DNA of 64,000 nucleotides from a virus, in UHGV virus genome UHGV-0098755; one strand, given 5' to 3'. The notes beneath the pieces were generated by a model. That model was given only the letters and a program-made list of their open reading frames with translations, had not been told where the DNA came from and did not search any database. Positions 6,265-51,466 of the stretch are shown in pieces. A program made the translations under genes and the position numbers. The first letter of the stretch is position 1; every line of letters begins with the position of its first letter.

Positions 6265-6756
6265 ATGTTTGTAGATGATGTAACACGAGCGTTTGAATCT
6301 GGTGATTTTGCTCGACCTAACTTATTCCAAGTAGAAATTTCTTATCTTGGACAAAATTTTACGTTTCAATGTAAAGCCACTGCTTTACCAGCTGGTATTG
6401 TAGAAAAAATTCCAGTCGGATTTATGAACCGTAAAATTAACGTAGCAGGCGATCGTACATTCGATGACTGGACTGTTACAGTAATGAACGATGAGGCACA
6501 TGATGCTCGCCAGAAGTTCGTTGATTGGCAAAGCATTGCTGCGGGACAAGGAAACGAAATTACTGGTGGAAAACCTGCAGAGTATAAAAAGAGCGCTATC
6601 GTTCGTCAATATGCTCGTGACGCTAAAACAGTAACAAAAGAAATTGAAATTAAAGGTCTGTGGCCTACTAACGTGGGTGAACTTCAATTAGATTGGGATT
6701 CAAACAATGAAATCCAAACCTTTGAAGTAACTCTCGCTCTCGATTATTGGGAATAA
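6265..6756 (+). CDS. 19: tail tube protein gp19 (163 aa)
   Basis: 163 aa as in T4 gp19; two TATAAATA late promoters upstream. Confidence 0.9.
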   Translation: MFVDDVTRAFESGDFARPNLFQVEISYLGQNFTFQCKATALPAGIVEKIPVGFMNRKINVAGDRTFDDWTVTVMNDEAHDARQKFVDWQSIAAGQGNEITGGKPAEYKKSAIVRQYARDAKTVTKEIEIKGLWPTNVGELQLDWDSNNEIQTFEVTLALDYWE

Positions 6757-6761
6757 AATGA

Positions 6762-6779
6762 ATGGGGAGAAATCCCCAT
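6762..6779 (+). terminator. hairpin with GAAA tetraloop after gene 19
   Basis: ATGGGGA-GAAA-TCCCCAT. Confidence 0.45.
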
Positions 6780-6788
6780 CCTGCTTAA

Positions 6789-8413
<1,625 letters not shown>

Positions 8414-44754: not shown

Positions 44755-45924
44755 TTAAAAGTATTTTTTAAAACTCATCATAACTTTATCATCAACATCA
44801 TTATCAATCTGTGCAACAAGGTAAGATGACAGTTCTACTTCTTGTGGCGCGGATTGAACATTATCAGAATTAAGATATTCACGAATCCAAGGATATGGGT
44901 GTTTAACCGGAGCATCGGTAATTGGGCATGGAAGACCACACTGTTTCATACGAGATACAGTTAAGTAATCAATAAAGCTCCACATGCTATTTGTATTTAA
45001 TCCAGGAACATCGCCATCTTTAAATAAATGAACTGCCCAGTCTTTTTCTTGACGGTTAACTTCCATGAAAATATCAACTGCTTCTTGTTCACACTCTTGA
45101 GCAATTTTAACCCATTCATCACCATCAGTACCGGATTGAAGTTGACGAATAATATATTGAGTGCCTTTAAGGTGAAGCTGTTCATCACGAGCAATGAACT
45201 TCATAATCTTGGCATTACCTTCCATGATTTCCATGTTCTTATGGAAGTTAAAGGTACATGCGAAAGATACATAAAAACGAATAGCTTCCAATGCGTTGAT
45301 TACATGAAGGCAAAGATAAAGAGATTTCATTAATGCTCGTTTAGTACATTCAACAACTTTGCCTAACTCTTCTTTACGAAATCCTTCTGATAAAATTCCT
45401 TCATAATCTTCAACCGCATTCTGATATTCACGAGTCTTAACTAGAACATCATCATAATAACGACCAATAGATTCAGCACGTTTCATGATAGCTTTATCTA
45501 ATACAATCTCATCAAATACCTTTGACGGATCAGTATAAAGATTTCGCATGATATGAGTATATGAACGACTGTGAATAGTTTCACTAAAAGTCCATGTAGC
45601 AACCCATGTATCAAGACTTGGGTCTGAAATTAATGACATAAGTACAGCAGAAGGCGCACGACCCTGAATGCTATCCAAAAGTGATTGATACTTCAGATTA
45701 TTAGTAAAAATATCCTGCTGATATTGAGGAAGCTTATTAAATTGTGCAGCATCCATCATCAAGTTTACTTCTTCAGGACGCCAGAAAAATGACAACTGCT
45801 TTTCGGTTAAATCTTCAAAAACTTTATGACGTTGAATATCATAACGCGCAATACCAAGACCTGAACCAAAAAACATAGGTTCTTTTAAAACATCAACTGG
45901 ATTTGTATTAAAAACTGTAGACAT
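44755..45924 (-). CDS. nrdB: ribonucleotide reductase small subunit NrdB (389 aa), uninterrupted
   Basis: Di-iron ligand motifs (ARDEQLH); one continuous ORF, so no intron. Confidence 0.9.
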   Translation of the reverse strand: MSTVFNTNPVDVLKEPMFFGSGLGIARYDIQRHKVFEDLTEKQLSFFWRPEEVNLMMDAAQFNKLPQYQQDIFTNNLKYQSLLDSIQGRAPSAVLMSLISDPSLDTWVATWTFSETIHSRSYTHIMRNLYTDPSKVFDEIVLDKAIMKRAESIGRYYDDVLVKTREYQNAVEDYEGILSEGFRKEELGKVVECTKRALMKSLYLCLHVINALEAIRFYVSFACTFNFHKNMEIMEGNAKIMKFIARDEQLHLKGTQYIIRQLQSGTDGDEWVKIAQECEQEAVDIFMEVNRQEKDWAVHLFKDGDVPGLNTNSMWSFIDYLTVSRMKQCGLPCPITDAPVKHPYPWIREYLNSDNVQSAPQEVELSSYLVAQIDNDVDDKVMMSFKKYF

Positions 45925-45958
45925 ATTATTCTCGCTTATTATAGGTTTAAATATTTAA

Positions 45959-46762
45959 TCACATATTATGTATAAGCACTTCAGTCTGAAATGATGCACC
46001 TTTCTTTTGCTTCCTATACATGGTTTCAAAATATTCAATTTTGAAATTATTAGAAAGGGCCCAATCTTTTAAAATATAATTATTAATATCGTCTGATAGA
46101 TTATTAGTGATAATAAATTTAGACTTTGACCGTTTAATTTTATCTAATAATTCTAATTCATCCTTTTCTTCCCATCCTGAATATTTAAATTTAGTAGAAA
46201 GATAAGGCGGGTCAATGAATAAATTTTTGTTTTCAAAATCTAAATCTCTGAATGATTTATTACTAAATGTAAATCGGTGTTGTCTATTTTTAAATTCAGA
46301 AAATTTATCCTGCTGAGACTTATTAAAAGAAGTTCTAGAATACTTGGCTCTATTGGCGAAAGCCGCGTTATAGTTCCCATTACTAGAAAATCGGATTAAT
46401 GAACTGAATGAAAATAAATGTAGAACATAAAGATATAGTCCGTTTTTGGTTTTATCGTATTCTTTTGACAGATTATAAAAAGGTGCTGAATCTTTGTCAT
46501 TCAAATTGAAGTCTTCAATAATTTGAACTATATCATTAATTGAAGATGATTTCATCTTTTTATACATGTCTATAAGAGGAGTATTAATATCATTACATAT
46601 AACATTTCTTTGACAATTCATAGAAAATCCAAGACCGCCACAAAAAGCATCCAAAACGGGCTTATCATCAAAGCGGTTTGAAAATTGTCTAATAAATGGC
46701 ATATACTTATGCTTTGCACCTGGATATGTTATGGCAGGTAGGTCTTTCATATTATTTCTCAT
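45959..46762 (-). CDS. Dam-like N6-adenine DNA methyltransferase (267 aa; alternative start 46750)
   Basis: AdoMet motif I FCGGLG then catalytic motif IV DPPY (alpha-class order); overall similar to but divergent from T4 Dam as recalled. Confidence 0.7.
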   Translation of the reverse strand: MRNNMKDLPAITYPGAKHKYMPFIRQFSNRFDDKPVLDAFCGGLGFSMNCQRNVICNDINTPLIDMYKKMKSSSINDIVQIIEDFNLNDKDSAPFYNLSKEYDKTKNGLYLYVLHLFSFSSLIRFSSNGNYNAAFANRAKYSRTSFNKSQQDKFSEFKNRQHRFTFSNKSFRDLDFENKNLFIDPPYLSTKFKYSGWEEKDELELLDKIKRSKSKFIITNNLSDDINNYILKDWALSNNFKIEYFETMYRKQKKGASFQTEVLIHNM

Positions 46763-46794
46763 TTGTTAGTGACTCGTCCATGAGTCATATTATA

Positions 46795-49059
46795 TCATAA
46801 TTTACAGGATGAACAATCTTCAGCTTTTGGAGTTTCTATTTCATAATCATCAGTACCAGAACCATCACGGGTATTATGATAATAGAAATTTTTTCCGCCA
46901 AAATACCAGAAATACAAAAGGTCATCAATCATTATTGACATTGGAACCTTTCCTTTTGGAAAAATCTGCGGGTCATAGTATGTATTCGCTGAAGCTGATT
47001 GACATACCCATTTCAGCATAATAGCTACCTGCGTAAGATAAGGTTTATTACCTTTCTTAGCTAATTTCCACGTATAATCATAGAGGTCTATGTTATGTTC
47101 AATATTGGGCACGACTTGATTAAAGGAACCCTCTTTTGATTCTTTAACAGAGACTGGTCCACGTGGAGGCTCGATACCGTTTGTACTGTTAGAAACTTGG
47201 GAAGATGACTCACACGGCATAAGTGCTGATAATGTGCTATTACGGATGCCAAAGAGCTTAAGGTCTTCCCGCAGCGCCGACCAGTCACAAACGTATTTTG
47301 GAGCTGCGATTTGGTCAATCTTTTTATTGTACCAGTCGATAGGTAATTCGCCTCGAGACCAACGAGTGTCTGAATAATATTCGCAAGGTCCTTTTTCTTT
47401 GGCGAGCTTAATGGATGCTTTAATGAGTCCATACTGTAATCTCTCAAATAGTTCATGTGTTAAATCGTTAGCATCTTCATAAGAAGCAAAGTTACTTGCC
47501 AGCCAAGCTGCATAGTTGGTAACACCTACACCGAGGTTACGACGCTTTTTAGCTTTTTCTGCTTCAGGAACTGGATATCCTTGGTAATCCAAAAGATTAT
47601 CAAGAGCACGAACTTGAACTTCTGCCAATTCATTAATTTTATCTTGGTCTTGCCAATCGAAGTTATCCAACACAAATGCAGATAACGTACACAATCCAAT
47701 TTCAGCATCAGGGCTATTCACATCATTTGTTGGAATAGCAATTTCACAACACAAGTTACTTTGACGAATAGGTGCCTTTTCACGAATAAACGGAGTATAG
47801 TTATTCGTATTATCAATGAACTGTACATAAATCCTCGCTGTTCCTGAGCGTTCAGTCATGAGCAATTCAAACAGTTCACGGGCTTTAATACGCTTTTTAC
47901 GAATATTAGGGTCTTTTTCTGCGGCTTCGTATAATTCACGGAAACGGTCTTGGTCTTTAAAATAAGAATAATAAAGTTCGCCACCCATTTCATGCGGACT
48001 GAACAAAGTAATGTAGTCGTTCTTTCCAAAACGTTCCATCATCAAATCATTCAGCTGAACGCCATAATCCATATGACGGATACGGTTTTCTTCTACGCCT
48101 TTGTTATTTTTCAAAACGAGAAGATTTTCAACTTCCAAATGCCAAATAGGATAATAAGCAGTAGCAGCGCCGCCACGAATTCCGCCTTGTGAGCATGATT
48201 TAACGGCAGTCTGAAAATGTTTCCAAAAAGGAATAACACCAGTATGGCGTACTTCACCTGTGCCAATCTTAGAACCTTCGGCACGAATCATACCAACGTT
48301 AATGCCGATTCCAGCTCGTTTAGAAATATACTCAACAATTGAAGCGGAAGCCTTATTGATAGACTTCAGCGAATCACCTGCTTCAATAACAACACACGAG
48401 CTAAATTGCCGAGTCGGAGTACGACATCCAGCCATAATAGGAGTTGGCAGTGAAATCTGTCGAGTAGATACTGCTTCATAAAAACGAATAACATGTTTTA
48501 ATCTATCAACAGGTTCATCTTGATGCAATGCCATTCCAATAGTCATAAATGCAAACTGTGGAGTTTCATAAATTTGACCAGTGGTTTTATCTTTAACGAG
48601 ATATTTTTCTTTTAATTGCATCGCCCCGGAATAAGTAAATTCCATATCCCGCTCATGCTTAATTTTTGATTCTAAAAATGTAATTTCTTCTGCTGAATAT
48701 TTTGACAGCAGTTCAGGGTCGTATTTACCTTCATTTACGCAGTAAGAAATATGGTCAATAAATGAACGCGGTTCATACTGTCCGTAAACATGCTTACGAA
48801 GAGCAAACATTAAACAGCGTGCAGCTACGTATTGATAATCAGGCTCTTCAACTGAAATAGAATTCGCAGCAGCCTTAATGACAATAGTCTGAATGTCATC
48901 AGTTGTCATTCCATCACGGAGATATGATTTAATATTTTCATATAATTCATAAGGATCTACAGATGTTCCTTCGGCTGCCCAAGATAAAACTTTAATAATT
49001 TTTTGCGGGTCAAAGCTCTGAGAAACACCACTACTTTTGATAACATTAATTAATTGCAT
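46795..49059 (-). CDS. nrdA: ribonucleotide reductase large subunit NrdA (754 aa)
   Basis: 754 aa; active-site region NLCCEI; C-terminal Cys pair. Confidence 0.9.
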   Translation of the reverse strand: MQLINVIKSSGVSQSFDPQKIIKVLSWAAEGTSVDPYELYENIKSYLRDGMTTDDIQTIVIKAAANSISVEEPDYQYVAARCLMFALRKHVYGQYEPRSFIDHISYCVNEGKYDPELLSKYSAEEITFLESKIKHERDMEFTYSGAMQLKEKYLVKDKTTGQIYETPQFAFMTIGMALHQDEPVDRLKHVIRFYEAVSTRQISLPTPIMAGCRTPTRQFSSCVVIEAGDSLKSINKASASIVEYISKRAGIGINVGMIRAEGSKIGTGEVRHTGVIPFWKHFQTAVKSCSQGGIRGGAATAYYPIWHLEVENLLVLKNNKGVEENRIRHMDYGVQLNDLMMERFGKNDYITLFSPHEMGGELYYSYFKDQDRFRELYEAAEKDPNIRKKRIKARELFELLMTERSGTARIYVQFIDNTNNYTPFIREKAPIRQSNLCCEIAIPTNDVNSPDAEIGLCTLSAFVLDNFDWQDQDKINELAEVQVRALDNLLDYQGYPVPEAEKAKKRRNLGVGVTNYAAWLASNFASYEDANDLTHELFERLQYGLIKASIKLAKEKGPCEYYSDTRWSRGELPIDWYNKKIDQIAAPKYVCDWSALREDLKLFGIRNSTLSALMPCESSSQVSNSTNGIEPPRGPVSVKESKEGSFNQVVPNIEHNIDLYDYTWKLAKKGNKPYLTQVAIMLKWVCQSASANTYYDPQIFPKGKVPMSIMIDDLLYFWYFGGKNFYYHNTRDGSGTDDYEIETPKAEDCSSCKL

Positions 49060-49376: not shown

Positions 49377-49593
49377 ATTGTTTTTCCGTTAAAACAGTAA
49401 TATCGTAGTAACAGTCAGAAGAAGTTTTAACTGTGGAAATTTTATTATCAAAATACTCACGAGTCATTTTATGAGTATAGTATTTTTTACCATAAATGGT
49501 AATAGGCTGTTCTGGTCCTGGAACTTCTAACTCGCTTGGGTTAGGAAGTGTAAAAAGAACAACGCCAGAAGTATCTTTAAATCGTAAAATCAT
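49330..49593 (-). CDS. hypothetical protein (87 aa), position of T4 nrdA.2
   Basis: ATG start; overlaps neighbours. Confidence 0.45.
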
Positions 49594-49901
49594 ATTGCCA
49601 TTTTCCCTTTAATTGCTGGATGCGATTCATAATTTTCAAGGATAAAATCTTTCGGTTTCATGTATTCAGTTAACCAGTAAAGCTGTGTTTCGGTGTCACA
49701 ATTTCCAAACTCTATAGGCCAATCAATTTTAAGTTCACATAGTTCTTTAGGCTCACGACGTAAAATTTCTTTACATTGCTCAGTATGATTCATATAGATG
49801 TGAGTATTACCACCAGAAAATATCAAATCTCCTGGGATAAGATTACACATCTTAGCTACAATATGAACTAACGAAGCATATGATGCAATATTAAATGGAA
49901 G
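49590..49901 (-). CDS. td: thymidylate synthase, exon 2 (103 aa plus stop)
   Basis: Begins [19 protein letters not shown]... (conserved TS C-terminal region); 3' splice site after ...GAACATAATG; the ORF-track M at 49904 is the last 3 nt of the intron. Confidence 0.85.
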
Positions 49902-50917
49902 CATTATGTTCAGATAAGGTCGTTAATCTTATCCCGGAATTATATCCAGCTGCATGTCACCATGCAGAGCAGACTATATCTCCAACTTGCTAAAGCAAGT
50001 TGTCTATCGTTTCGAGTCACTTGACCCTACTCCCTAAAGGGATAGTCGTTAGGCATTTATGTAGAACCAATTCCACTTATCAGATTTTACACGGTAAGTA
50101 ACTAATCCGGATGAAATTTCAAAATATCTAGCTGCATCAGCTGCACATTCAAAAATAATCCCATCACATGAAATCTTTTTAATATTATTAGGCTTTTTAC
50201 CTTTCATCTTTTCTGATATTTTAGATTTAGTTTTGTCTGAATGCTTATGATTAAAGAATGAATTATTTTCACCTGAACGATTTCTGCATTTACTACAAGT
50301 ATAAGCAGAAGCTTGTATGCGAACACCGCATTCACAAAACTTATGGGTTTCTGGATTCCAACGCCCGTTTTTACTTCCGGGTTTACCGTAAAGAGCTTTC
50401 CGACCATCAGCGCCAAGCTTAAGCATCTTAGCTTTAACAGTTTCAGAACGTTTCTTAATAATTTCTTCTTTTAATGGATGCACAGAATATGTATCACCAA
50501 ACGTTGCATCAGCAATATTGTATCCATTAATTTTAGAATTAAGCTCTTTAATCCAAAAATTTTCTCGTTCAATAATCAAATCTTTCTCATATGGAATTTC
50601 TTCCAAAATAGAGCATTCAAACACATTACCGTGTTTGTTAAAAGACCTTTGAAGTTTTATAGAAGAATGGCATCCTTTTTCTAAGTCTTTAAAATGCCTC
50701 TTCCATCTCTTTTCAAAATCTTTAGCACTTCCTACATATACTTTATTGTTTAAAGTATTTTTAATCTGATAAATTCCACTTTTCATAAATACCTCTTTAA
50801 ATATAGAAGTATTTATTAAAGGGCAGTCCTACAATTTAGCACGGGATTGTCTACTAGAGAGGTTCCCCGTTTAGATAGATTACAAGTATAAGTCACCTTA
50901 TACTCAGGCCTCAATTA
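49902..50917 (-). mobile_element. group I self-splicing intron in td (1016 nt) carrying the I-TevI ORF
   Basis: 5' end reads TAATTGAGGCCTGAGTATAAGGTGACTTATACTTGTAATCTATCTAAACGGGGAACC... directly after exon 1 ...TTGGGT; 3' end ...CTGAACATAATG; length 1016 nt equals the T4 td intron as recalled. Confidence 0.85.
50049..50786 (-). CDS. GIY-YIG homing endonuclease I-TevI (245 aa)
   Basis: N-terminal GIYQIKNTLNNKVYVGSAKDFEKRWKRH (GIY-YIG); 245 aa; inside the td intron. Confidence 0.9.
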   Translation of the reverse strand: MKSGIYQIKNTLNNKVYVGSAKDFEKRWKRHFKDLEKGCHSSIKLQRSFNKHGNVFECSILEEIPYEKDLIIERENFWIKELNSKINGYNIADATFGDTYSVHPLKEEIIKKRSETVKAKMLKLGADGRKALYGKPGSKNGRWNPETHKFCECGVRIQASAYTCSKCRNRSGENNSFFNHKHSDKTKSKISEKMKGKKPNNIKKISCDGIIFECAADAARYFEISSGLVTYRVKSDKWNWFYINA

Positions 50918-51466
50918 ACCCAAGAAAACATCTACTGATCGTTGATACCATTGTAAATCAAGATAACCATTACGCACATTAAACTGATAGAACATATGAC
51001 AGGGCGGTAATGCCATTTGATTGATTTCAGCTGGATTCCATGCTGAAACGATTTGACGTCGATCAGTTGGTAATTTTTTAATACGATCAATAGTTTCAAC
51101 TAATTGATCCACACCACCGAAATCACGCCATTGTTTACCGTATATAGGACCAAGTTCACCACTATGATATCCTAGGTCTTTAGCCTGGTTTTCATAGTTA
51201 TCGTCCCAAATAGTTTTACCTTGAATAAGACTACCATGAGTGCGAAGACGTAAATCATTAACATTGGTAGAACCGGAAATAAACCATAGAAGCTCAGCAA
51301 TGCAAGCTTTCCAGGCGAGCTTTTTGGTTGTTACCGCAGGAAAACCTTTGGTTAAATCCCAACGCAATTTAGTACCGAACAAAGCAATTGTTCCTGTGCC
51401 TGTTCGGTCATCGGTTTCGTAGCCATTTTCAAAAATGTCTTTAATTAAATCTTGGTATTGTTTCAT
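50918..51466 (-). CDS. td: thymidylate synthase, exon 1 (183 codons)
   Basis: TS active-site motif PPCH (ALPPCHMFYQF); exon ends ...VDVFLG immediately before intron TAATTGAGG. Confidence 0.85.

Follow-up and report, generated by a model that had tools for sequence, protein, structure and literature searches.

A predicted Dam-family adenine methyltransferase gene in the nrdA-nrdB spacer of T4-like phages

The adenine methyltransferases T4 Dam (M.EcoT4Dam; PDB 1q0s, 1yf3, 1yfj and 1yfl), EcoDam and DpnM are all GATC enzymes. The host-cell roles of EcoDam and DpnM (mismatch repair, replication timing and partnership with DpnII in restriction-modification) are inapplicable to a lytic phage, and the biological role of T4 Dam is poorly defined. 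In T4, the dam gene is flanked by the primase gene (61) and the dCTPase gene (56). It is not fixed in T-even phages, being found in only about a third of Tequatrovirus records; in its place, a small number of phages have a distinct Dam-type enzyme encoded elsewhere in the genome.

The spacer between the ribonucleotide reductase genes nrdA and nrdB is a known hotspot, which holds mobE, a free-standing HNH homing-endonuclease gene, in T4 (PMC2790892). The middle promoter of nrdB sits inside mobE in T4 and was placed in the area following the nrdA stop in mobE-less phages, in which MobE nicks nrdB at nucleotides 122-126 (PMC2790892). T4-type mobE is rare (23 records) and the spacer is empty in most phages. 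Here we describe a methylase gene that occupies the same spacer. Like mobE, it is a one-gene accessory insert within the nrd transcription unit, with a patchy distribution, exchanged along with the flanking nrd sequence. In contrast to mobE, with which it shares no sequence similarity, it has no nuclease domain and no evident means of self-spread. The first-pass annotation of this DNA had stated that mobE fills the T4 interval while dam lies elsewhere, which agrees with the positions given above.

A Dam-family gene between nrdA and nrdB

The DNA analysed is a stretch of 64,000 nts from the virus genome UHGV-0098755, referred to as the window. Its gene order (pseT, alc, rnlA, denA, nrdB, nrdA and td with an I-TevI-type intron ORF) is that of a T4-like (Tequatrovirus) phage. 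Two metagenome contigs of about 168.8 kb (ENA ERZ917836 k127_35778 and ERZ27272398 k119_42428), one of which comes from a human gut sample, match the window with 100% identity from nrdA through rnlA. The nrdB-nrdA spacer spans exactly 45925-46794 and the sole ORF inside it is the methylase, on the minus strand (45959-46762, 267 aa). Spacers of 32-34 nts separate the gene from its nrd neighbours, and the G+C content of the cassette is 26-30%, compared with 34-42% for the nrd genes. The features of the locus are the following:

45959..46750, minus strand: predicted Dam-family (D12, alpha-class) N6-adenine DNA methyltransferase, 263 aa from the probable start; longest ORF to 46762 (267 aa)
46748..46764, minus strand: translation-initiation region of the methylase (AAATGAGAAATAATATG); an nrdB-type initiation region is duplicated at the locus and this is its left copy
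45922..45938, minus strand: translation-initiation region of nrdB (TAAGCGAGAATAATATG); right copy of the same duplication, which brackets the cassette
46770..46787, minus strand: conserved 6-bp stem-loop directly past the nrdA stop and upstream of the cassette, marking the left edge of the insertion point
46795..49059, minus strand: nrdA, ribonucleotide reductase large subunit, upstream flank
44755..45924, minus strand: nrdB, small subunit, without intron, downstream flank, with AAG at codon 42 as in phages that lack mobE

The second ATG, at 46750 (MKDL..., 263 aa), is the probable true start of the methylase: a correctly spaced Shine-Dalgarno sequence, GAG(A), precedes it, the GenBank annotators chose it, and three homologues, including the Klebsiella phage copy, have only a start of this type.

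By family, fold and motifs, the product is predicted to be a full-length alpha-class D12/Dam-family N6-adenine DNA methyltransferase. Motif I (DAFCGGLGFS, for AdoMet, of the FxGxG type) lies about 140 residues N-terminal to motif IV (FIDPPYL) with the target-recognition region in between, which is the alpha-class order. FCGGLG (residues 36-41) and DPPY (residues 180-183, in the 263-aa numbering) fall in columns that are nearly invariant in 130 relatives, and the catalytic and cofactor positions F32, G34 and D171-P-P-Y174 (T4 numbering) are kept. Pfam PF02086 (D12 N6-adenine DNA methyltransferase) is matched over profile positions 1-251 of 253 with 85.1 bits (E = 8e-24, for a cut-off of 22) and is the only Pfam match, with neither an HNH nor a GIY-YIG domain. 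PHROG 56 is matched at E = 5e-37 and the top PADLOC model is “orphan methyltransferase”. An AlphaFold2 model built from a 72-sequence alignment reached a pLDDT of 92.2 and a pTM of 0.90 (a four-sequence alignment had given an unusable model, with a pLDDT of 40). In Foldseek, T4 Dam-DNA complexes came first (TM 0.84-0.91), followed by EcoDam (TM 0.72-0.80) and DpnM (TM 0.72-0.73), which assigns the protein to the Dam fold (a Rossmann-type catalytic domain and a helical DNA-binding domain with a beta-hairpin).

T4 Dam is also the nearest PDB relative by sequence (1yfj, 132 bits, E = 4e-37), with a better score than the best 50% representative outside the methylase's own cluster among 1.84 billion (a T4-Dam-like protein, 34% identity, 117 bits by phmmer). 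The two enzymes share their length class, the N-terminal Lys, the intercalating Phe-Ser pair, the hairpin Arg, DPPY and the status of orphan enzyme of a T-even phage. In contrast, they are only 34% identical over their full length (blastp, E = 1e-39), and the methylase is longer by six residues after the hairpin, a trait shared with EcoDam, and differs by Pro126 to Ala, Asn118 to Ser and Gly128 to Ala. EcoDam and DpnM belong to the same Pfam family, but their identity to the methylase is 16-18% (27-28 bits by phmmer).

The methylase is therefore a genuine yet outlying member of the Dam family, since it scores below the NCBI curated cut-off of 114.85 bits for TIGR00571 (the NCBIfam model “Dam family site-specific DNA-(adenine-N6)-methyltransferase”). 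The window protein reaches 93.1 bits and the type-B allele (that of phages vB_Eco_BGP, CF-SP2 and fDHCT2) 70.2 bits, whereas T4 Dam passes the cut-off two-fold (237.6 bits) and a comparison protein scored 153.9 bits. Standard “Dam family” HMM cut-offs thus miss the nrd-locus enzyme. The earlier description of the gene as an orphan Dam-like alpha-class methyltransferase, clearly divergent from T4 Dam, is upheld by the profile match, the aligned motifs and the level of identity. Its statement that no cognate nuclease is adjacent also holds: no restriction-type nuclease adjoins the gene, whose neighbours are nrdA, nrdB, denA and rnlA, as they are in non-carriers. The conserved T4 genes denA and I-TevI are likewise found in phages without the methylase. 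In every carrier, the methylase is flanked by nrdA and nrdB, unlike a Type II restriction-modification gene, which would adjoin that of its cognate endonuclease.

The lineage is small. When 1.84 billion cluster representatives were searched exhaustively with phmmer, the methylase's own 50% cluster alone was returned below E = 1e-30. A word-index protein search recovered four 90% clusters (76-100% identity), which altogether amount to about 36 distinct sequences among 15 billion proteins. Several of these come from named T4-like phage records or from contigs with a size of about 160-197 kb, and two NCBI entries labelled E. coli and Shigella are on contigs of about 167 kb. A scan of IMG/VR with the protein returned no relatives, and in a scan of JGI metagenomes with the methylase alignment the best 80 loci were all at most 33% identical, with no lineage members among the matches listed. 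In the GenBank phage collection, the nrd flanks were matched in 841 records and the insert in only 8. Using tblastn, nine carriers were found:

Tequatrovirus isolates T4_ev240, 236Ecol005PP, ECO07P2, vB_Eco_NR1 and EP02SG: about 98-99% protein identity
vB_Eco_BGP (Tequatrovirus): 80% protein identity
Salmonella phage CF-SP2 (Gelderlandvirus): 79% protein identity
fDHCT2 (unclassified): 78% protein identity
Klebsiella phage PhiKpNIH-6 (Marfavirus): 77% protein identity

The methylase directly follows nrdA in all nine and is in turn followed by nrdB in the eight with a visible downstream side; in PhiKpNIH-6, the gene runs off the start of the record. All located members of the lineage are on T4-like phage DNA at this same nrd site, in three named genera and one unclassified phage. 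They make up a small lineage that is sister to T4 Dam and has so far been seen on T4-like phage DNA only. The gene is already annotated as “DNA adenine methylase” in several GenBank records and is otherwise an ordinary orphan phage methylase of a well-known kind. The only paper found on carriers, an LC-MS study of the Durham collection that includes NR1 and BGP, described modifications of cytosine alone and considers no Dam-like gene other than that of the canonical locus (PMC13390438).

Selection, recognition hairpin and target

The methylase gene is under strong purifying selection, with a dN/dS of 0.04-0.07 within allele types and 0.13-0.19 between them, and no frameshifts or truncated alleles were found in the approximately 36 distinct sequences. 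On balance, the gene probably encodes an active orphan AdoMet-dependent N6-adenine methylase that acts on phage DNA at GATC or GATC-like sites, serves an anti-restriction function and is an alternative to dam. In the mechanism that we propose, the enzyme would be produced from a one-gene cassette with its own copy of an nrdB-like ribosome-binding region. It would slide on the phage DNA in the manner of T4 Dam, read its target, most likely GATC or a similar site, with the beta-hairpin and the N-terminal lysine, and then flip out and methylate the adenine. The benefit would be to hide sites from m6A-blocked host nucleases, as with other phage orphan methylases (PMC12707154). Such a gene is a probable source of adenine methylation to be considered when typing phage DNA or predicting its sensitivity to m6A-dependent or m6A-blocked nucleases (DpnI-like and DpnII/MboI-like, respectively). 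Because the cytosines of T-even DNA are already hydroxymethylated and glycosylated, the extra protection provided by GATC methylation may be small.

The target can be approached by comparison with EcoDam, in which K9 and Y138 read the first base pair, L122 and P134 contact the third, and R124 reads the G of the C:G pair; Y119 is the intercalating residue and N120 makes contact with the orphaned base (PMC4417163). In the alignment, the window methylase has Lys for K9, Phe for Y119 and Ser for N120 (both as in T4 Dam), Leu for L122 and Arg for R124. The segment after the hairpin is also similar in size to that of EcoDam. The equivalent of P134, a base-contacting Pro in both EcoDam and T4 Dam, is Ala. 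GATC or a close variant is the best guess, since all three solved homologues are GATC enzymes, but by this analogy the chance that it is the target would be little better than even. The target may differ from GATC because of the Ala at the base-contacting position and of rare hairpin substitutions in the methylase clade, N118 to S (2 of 130 relatives) and G128 to A (1 of 130).

A tentative alternative is hence that the enzyme is an active adenine methylase of altered or relaxed specificity, the two alleles being variants that protect against different host nucleases. The position of P134 is Ala or Ser in the clade, and Miner et al. reportedly described in 1989 that the T4 dam-h change P126S, which affects the same Pro, relaxes specificity. 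In the type-B allele, moreover, the Arg that reads the C:G pair is replaced by Lys, a residue found there in 3 of 130 relatives, and the hairpin differs from that of the window type (SMLKFSKDDKYIASF and SLIRFSSNGNYNAAF, respectively). The hairpin is invariant within an allele type (dN = 0), whereas between types its dN/dS is 0.29-0.63, compared with 0.13-0.19 gene-wide. The TIGR00571 scores below the Dam-family cut-off point in the same direction. However, Ala at the Pro position is unremarkable rather than diagnostic, as the 130 distant relatives have P (62), S (25), A (20) or T (12) there, that is A, S or T in 57 of them. The other GATC-reading positions are conserved, the three solved homologues are all GATC enzymes, and a hairpin dN/dS below 1 gives no evidence of positive selection. 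The DNA itself is depleted in GATC (78 sites observed versus 223 expected, a ratio of 0.35, the most depleted 4-mer palindrome), a count made in the window alone that says nothing specific about the methylase gene.

Relation to the canonical dam gene

The first-pass annotation had proposed that the gene is a second methyltransferase. This is true of vB_Eco_BGP, which has two Dam-like places by tblastn, the second being a canonical dam between 61 and 56. In contrast, only one such place was found in each of the other seven among the eight complete carrier records, and five of the six Tequatrovirus carriers, including all those with a protein of about 98% identity, lack the canonical dam. The ninth record, that of PhiKpNIH-6, also shows two Dam-like places, which are probably one gene wrapped across the record ends. 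In 236Ecol005PP, the 56-61 interval was found without dam. The Durham-collection study similarly reported a Dam-like gene at the canonical locus in Geo, EL and BGP only, not in NR1 (PMC13390438). The nrd-locus gene of NR1 (LR990704.1) is 98.9% identical to that of the window. The nrd-locus methylase is thus probably the sole Dam-type enzyme of its carriers in the usual case, which is why the favoured reading makes it an alternative to the canonical dam rather than an addition.

It is unlikely that, in the genome studied here, the methylase is additional to a canonical T4-type Dam. The window, in which no further Dam-like sequence was detected, is equivalent to about 91-155 kb of T4; its own 56-61 locus is therefore out of view and dam could be present elsewhere in the genome, as the case of vB_Eco_BGP illustrates. 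However, the single Dam-like place of most Tequatrovirus carriers and the empty canonical locus of 236Ecol005PP argue against it, as does the frequency of dam itself: a T4-type Dam (at least 90% identity) is found in about 182 phage records, compared with about 500 that have Tequatrovirus-like nrd flanks, which indicates that both methylase genes are accessory. The distribution does not establish mutual exclusivity, since dam is missing from about 64% of comparable phages as well as from five of six carriers, a non-significant difference between non-independent samples.

The reverse possibility, raised in the first-pass annotation as its own counter-case, was that the gene is the only, relocated dam orthologue of the phage, or that its catalytic motifs are lost. 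One half of it stands, as the methylase is probably the sole Dam-type enzyme of most carriers. The motifs are intact, and the gene is a distinct paralogue or xenologue, not a relocated dam orthologue, because both genes coexist in vB_Eco_BGP and the identity to T4 Dam is 34%, compared with 46-57% for the Dam of the other T4-like phage groups listed. Its locus is nrdA/nrdB and not 56/58-61.

History and expression of the nrd-locus cassette

The arrangement nrdA-methylase-nrdB is common to Tequatrovirus, Gelderlandvirus, Marfavirus and the unclassified fDHCT2; the nearest relatives of the nrd flanks of CF-SP2 and fDHCT2 are Dhakavirus phages. Between genera, the nucleotide identity of the methylase is 79%, 79% and 75%, versus 81/79%, 81/81% and 71% for nrdA/nrdB. 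In the window, the cassette is bracketed by the two nrdB-type initiation regions listed above, and in CF-SP2 the bracketing repeats (TAACAAATGAG and TAATAAATGAG) are 828 nts apart. Alone, such a bracketing repeat is only suggestive of the history of the cassette, as repeats of this size are common in AT-rich DNA. The empty sites add to this picture. The Dhakavirus empty spacer (...GAGTCACTAACAAATGAGAATAACATG-nrdB) is the exact product expected from recombination between both repeats, and that of Tequatrovirus PP01 retains the sequence found to the right of the cassette (CTATTAACTAAGCGG...). Each of these two empty-site junctions can be derived from a filled site and looks like a deletion of the cassette. 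At least one of them must derive from a filled site, since the leader that would otherwise belong to the cassette itself is found in the Dhakavirus spacer.

Sequence comparisons also make recombinational exchange at the nrd locus evident. Compared with the window, vB_Eco_BGP is 98% identical as far as the nrdA stop, precisely where identity falls to 72%; it remains at 72-78% along the 5′ two-thirds of the methylase and then rises to 88-98%. In three metagenome contigs, the methylase is 99-100% identical, yet nrdB is 92% identical. Given the synteny shared across genera, a divergence similar to that of the flanks and the two derivable empty sites, a long-resident cassette that was repeatedly lost and exchanged by recombination is no less likely than one gained recently. 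The earlier suggestion that the gene was acquired at a known hotspot is therefore right as to the site, which is the position of mobE in T4, while a recent gain is doubtful because the divergence of the gene tracks that of its flanks.

These exchanges and deletions, together with the two hairpins, allow a more speculative proposal, to which we give little credence at present. The nrdA-nrdB spacer of T-even-type phages could be a polymorphic methylation-specificity locus with at least two alleles, whose different hairpins (Arg to Lys) read different target sequences, and which are swapped across genera by nrd recombination and lost by deletion between the duplicated ribosome-binding regions. 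If this were true, phage populations would sample different adenine-methylation patterns against different host nucleases.

It is very improbable that the gene is a low-function passenger, either being lost or retained for nrdB expression signals in its 3′ end and the following spacer, as is the 3′ end of mobE in T4. The 3′ third of the methylase is unusually conserved, with 88-96% nucleotide identity between genera against about 80% in the nrd flanks and a lower synonymous divergence (dS 0.47-0.64 versus 0.99-1.75), which could reflect recent exchange or nrdB signals. The position of the T4 nrdB promoter inside mobE (PMC2790892) provides a precedent for such signals, and the gene is lost or absent in most phages. 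However, no convincing MotA-box/-10 pair for nrdB was seen by eye inside the methylase, a promoter scan showed no enrichment (14 versus 8.7 +/- 3.0), and a TGCTT motif conserved in the 3′ end of the gene is followed by no correctly spaced -10. In addition, the low dN/dS extends across the whole protein, the catalytic motifs are all intact and truncated alleles are absent from the approximately 36 sequences.

The least credible explanation, an anti-homing device in which methylation would shield nrdB from the MobE nick that lets mobE replace the cassette in mixed infections, draws on the shared site, the nicking of nrdB in mobE-less phages (PMC2790892) and the mosaic 5′ part of nrdB among carriers, but such a MobE-immunity role was rejected since the closest GATC is about 270 nts from the nick site, the window nrdB is of the MobE-sensitive T2/PP01 type (identical to PP01, including AAG at codon 42), so that carriers look MobE-sensitive, and T4-type mobE is rare.

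As for expression, the methylase would most likely be co-transcribed with nrdA and nrdB, in the pre-replicative period and during replication, as a scan of 45700-47100 revealed no terminator-like structure. Directly past the nrdA stop, in the area of the nrdB middle promoter of mobE-less phages, carriers and non-carriers alike have a TATAAT followed by the conserved stem-loop, the Marfavirus copy of which shows two compensatory changes.

Sequences bracketing the methylase cassette

The Dam-family methylase gene lies between nrdA and nrdB, and the features of this interval are as follows.

46770-46794 (-): TATAAT and a 6-bp stem-loop (TGACTC-ATGGAC-GAGTCA), directly 3′ of the nrdA stop
46748-46764 (-) and 45922-45938 (-): duplicated nrdB-type ribosome-binding regions, one on each side of the cassette
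46064-46263 (-): 3′ third of the methylase gene, with raised between-genera identity
~45962-45982 (-): conserved GAAGTGCTTATACATAATATG, at the extreme end of the methylase ORF, downstream of 46064-46263

A corresponding pair of regions occurs in the comparison locus L012 (3995-4005 and 4823-4833), and the comparison of repeats and empty sites also draws on L016 (768-812). The empty site of Dhakavirus, which lacks the methylase, is the product expected from recombination between the two nrdB-type ribosome-binding regions, while the empty junction of Tequatrovirus PP01 differs from it.

After the nrdA stop, TATAAT is followed by the conserved stem-loop, which is found in methylase-bearing and methylase-less phages alike. 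In Marfavirus, it carries two compensatory changes that maintain the pairing (AGGCTC...GAGCCT). The middle transcript of nrdB may begin with this stem-loop.

Conservation of the methylase 3′ third

Between genera, the 3′ third of the methylase gene retains 88-96% nucleotide identity compared to ~80% in the flanking nrd genes, and its synonymous divergence is lower. This pattern may reflect either a recent exchange or an embedded signal.

Variable and divided nrd and td genes

In nrdB, a hypervariable patch (45274-45464, (-)) shows 35-69% nucleotide identity, compared to 95-100% around it, and includes a 3-codon length difference (389 vs 392 aa). It lies directly 5′ of the position of the nrdB group I intron of T4 and vB_Eco_BGP (~45258) and resembles a tract of homing-related co-conversion or immunity. 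The thymidylate synthase gene, td, is in two pieces (49590-51466, (-)) separated by a GIY-YIG/I-TevI-type ORF of 245 aa (50049-50786), the same arrangement as in the T4 td intron. A “putative mobile endonuclease” divides nrdA into two CDSs in Escherichia phage 236Ecol005PP (PP434423.1, 6097-9265), whereas nrdA is unbroken in the window.

GATC content and the neighbor of canonical dam

Across the window (1-64000), 78 GATC sites were observed for 223 expected under a second-order Markov model. This ratio of 0.35 is the lowest among 4-mer palindromes, followed by CTAG (0.57). In vB_Eco_BGP (OZ035849.1), a 186-aa ORF (6404-6964), termed “restriction enzyme-like” (PMC13390438), immediately precedes the canonical dam. 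It resembles DpnII (GATC) restriction endonucleases (PF04556) weakly, scoring 16.8 bits, below the cut-off of 23. In this T4-like phage, the ORF may be left over from a GATC R-M pair or may be one of the partners in such a pair.
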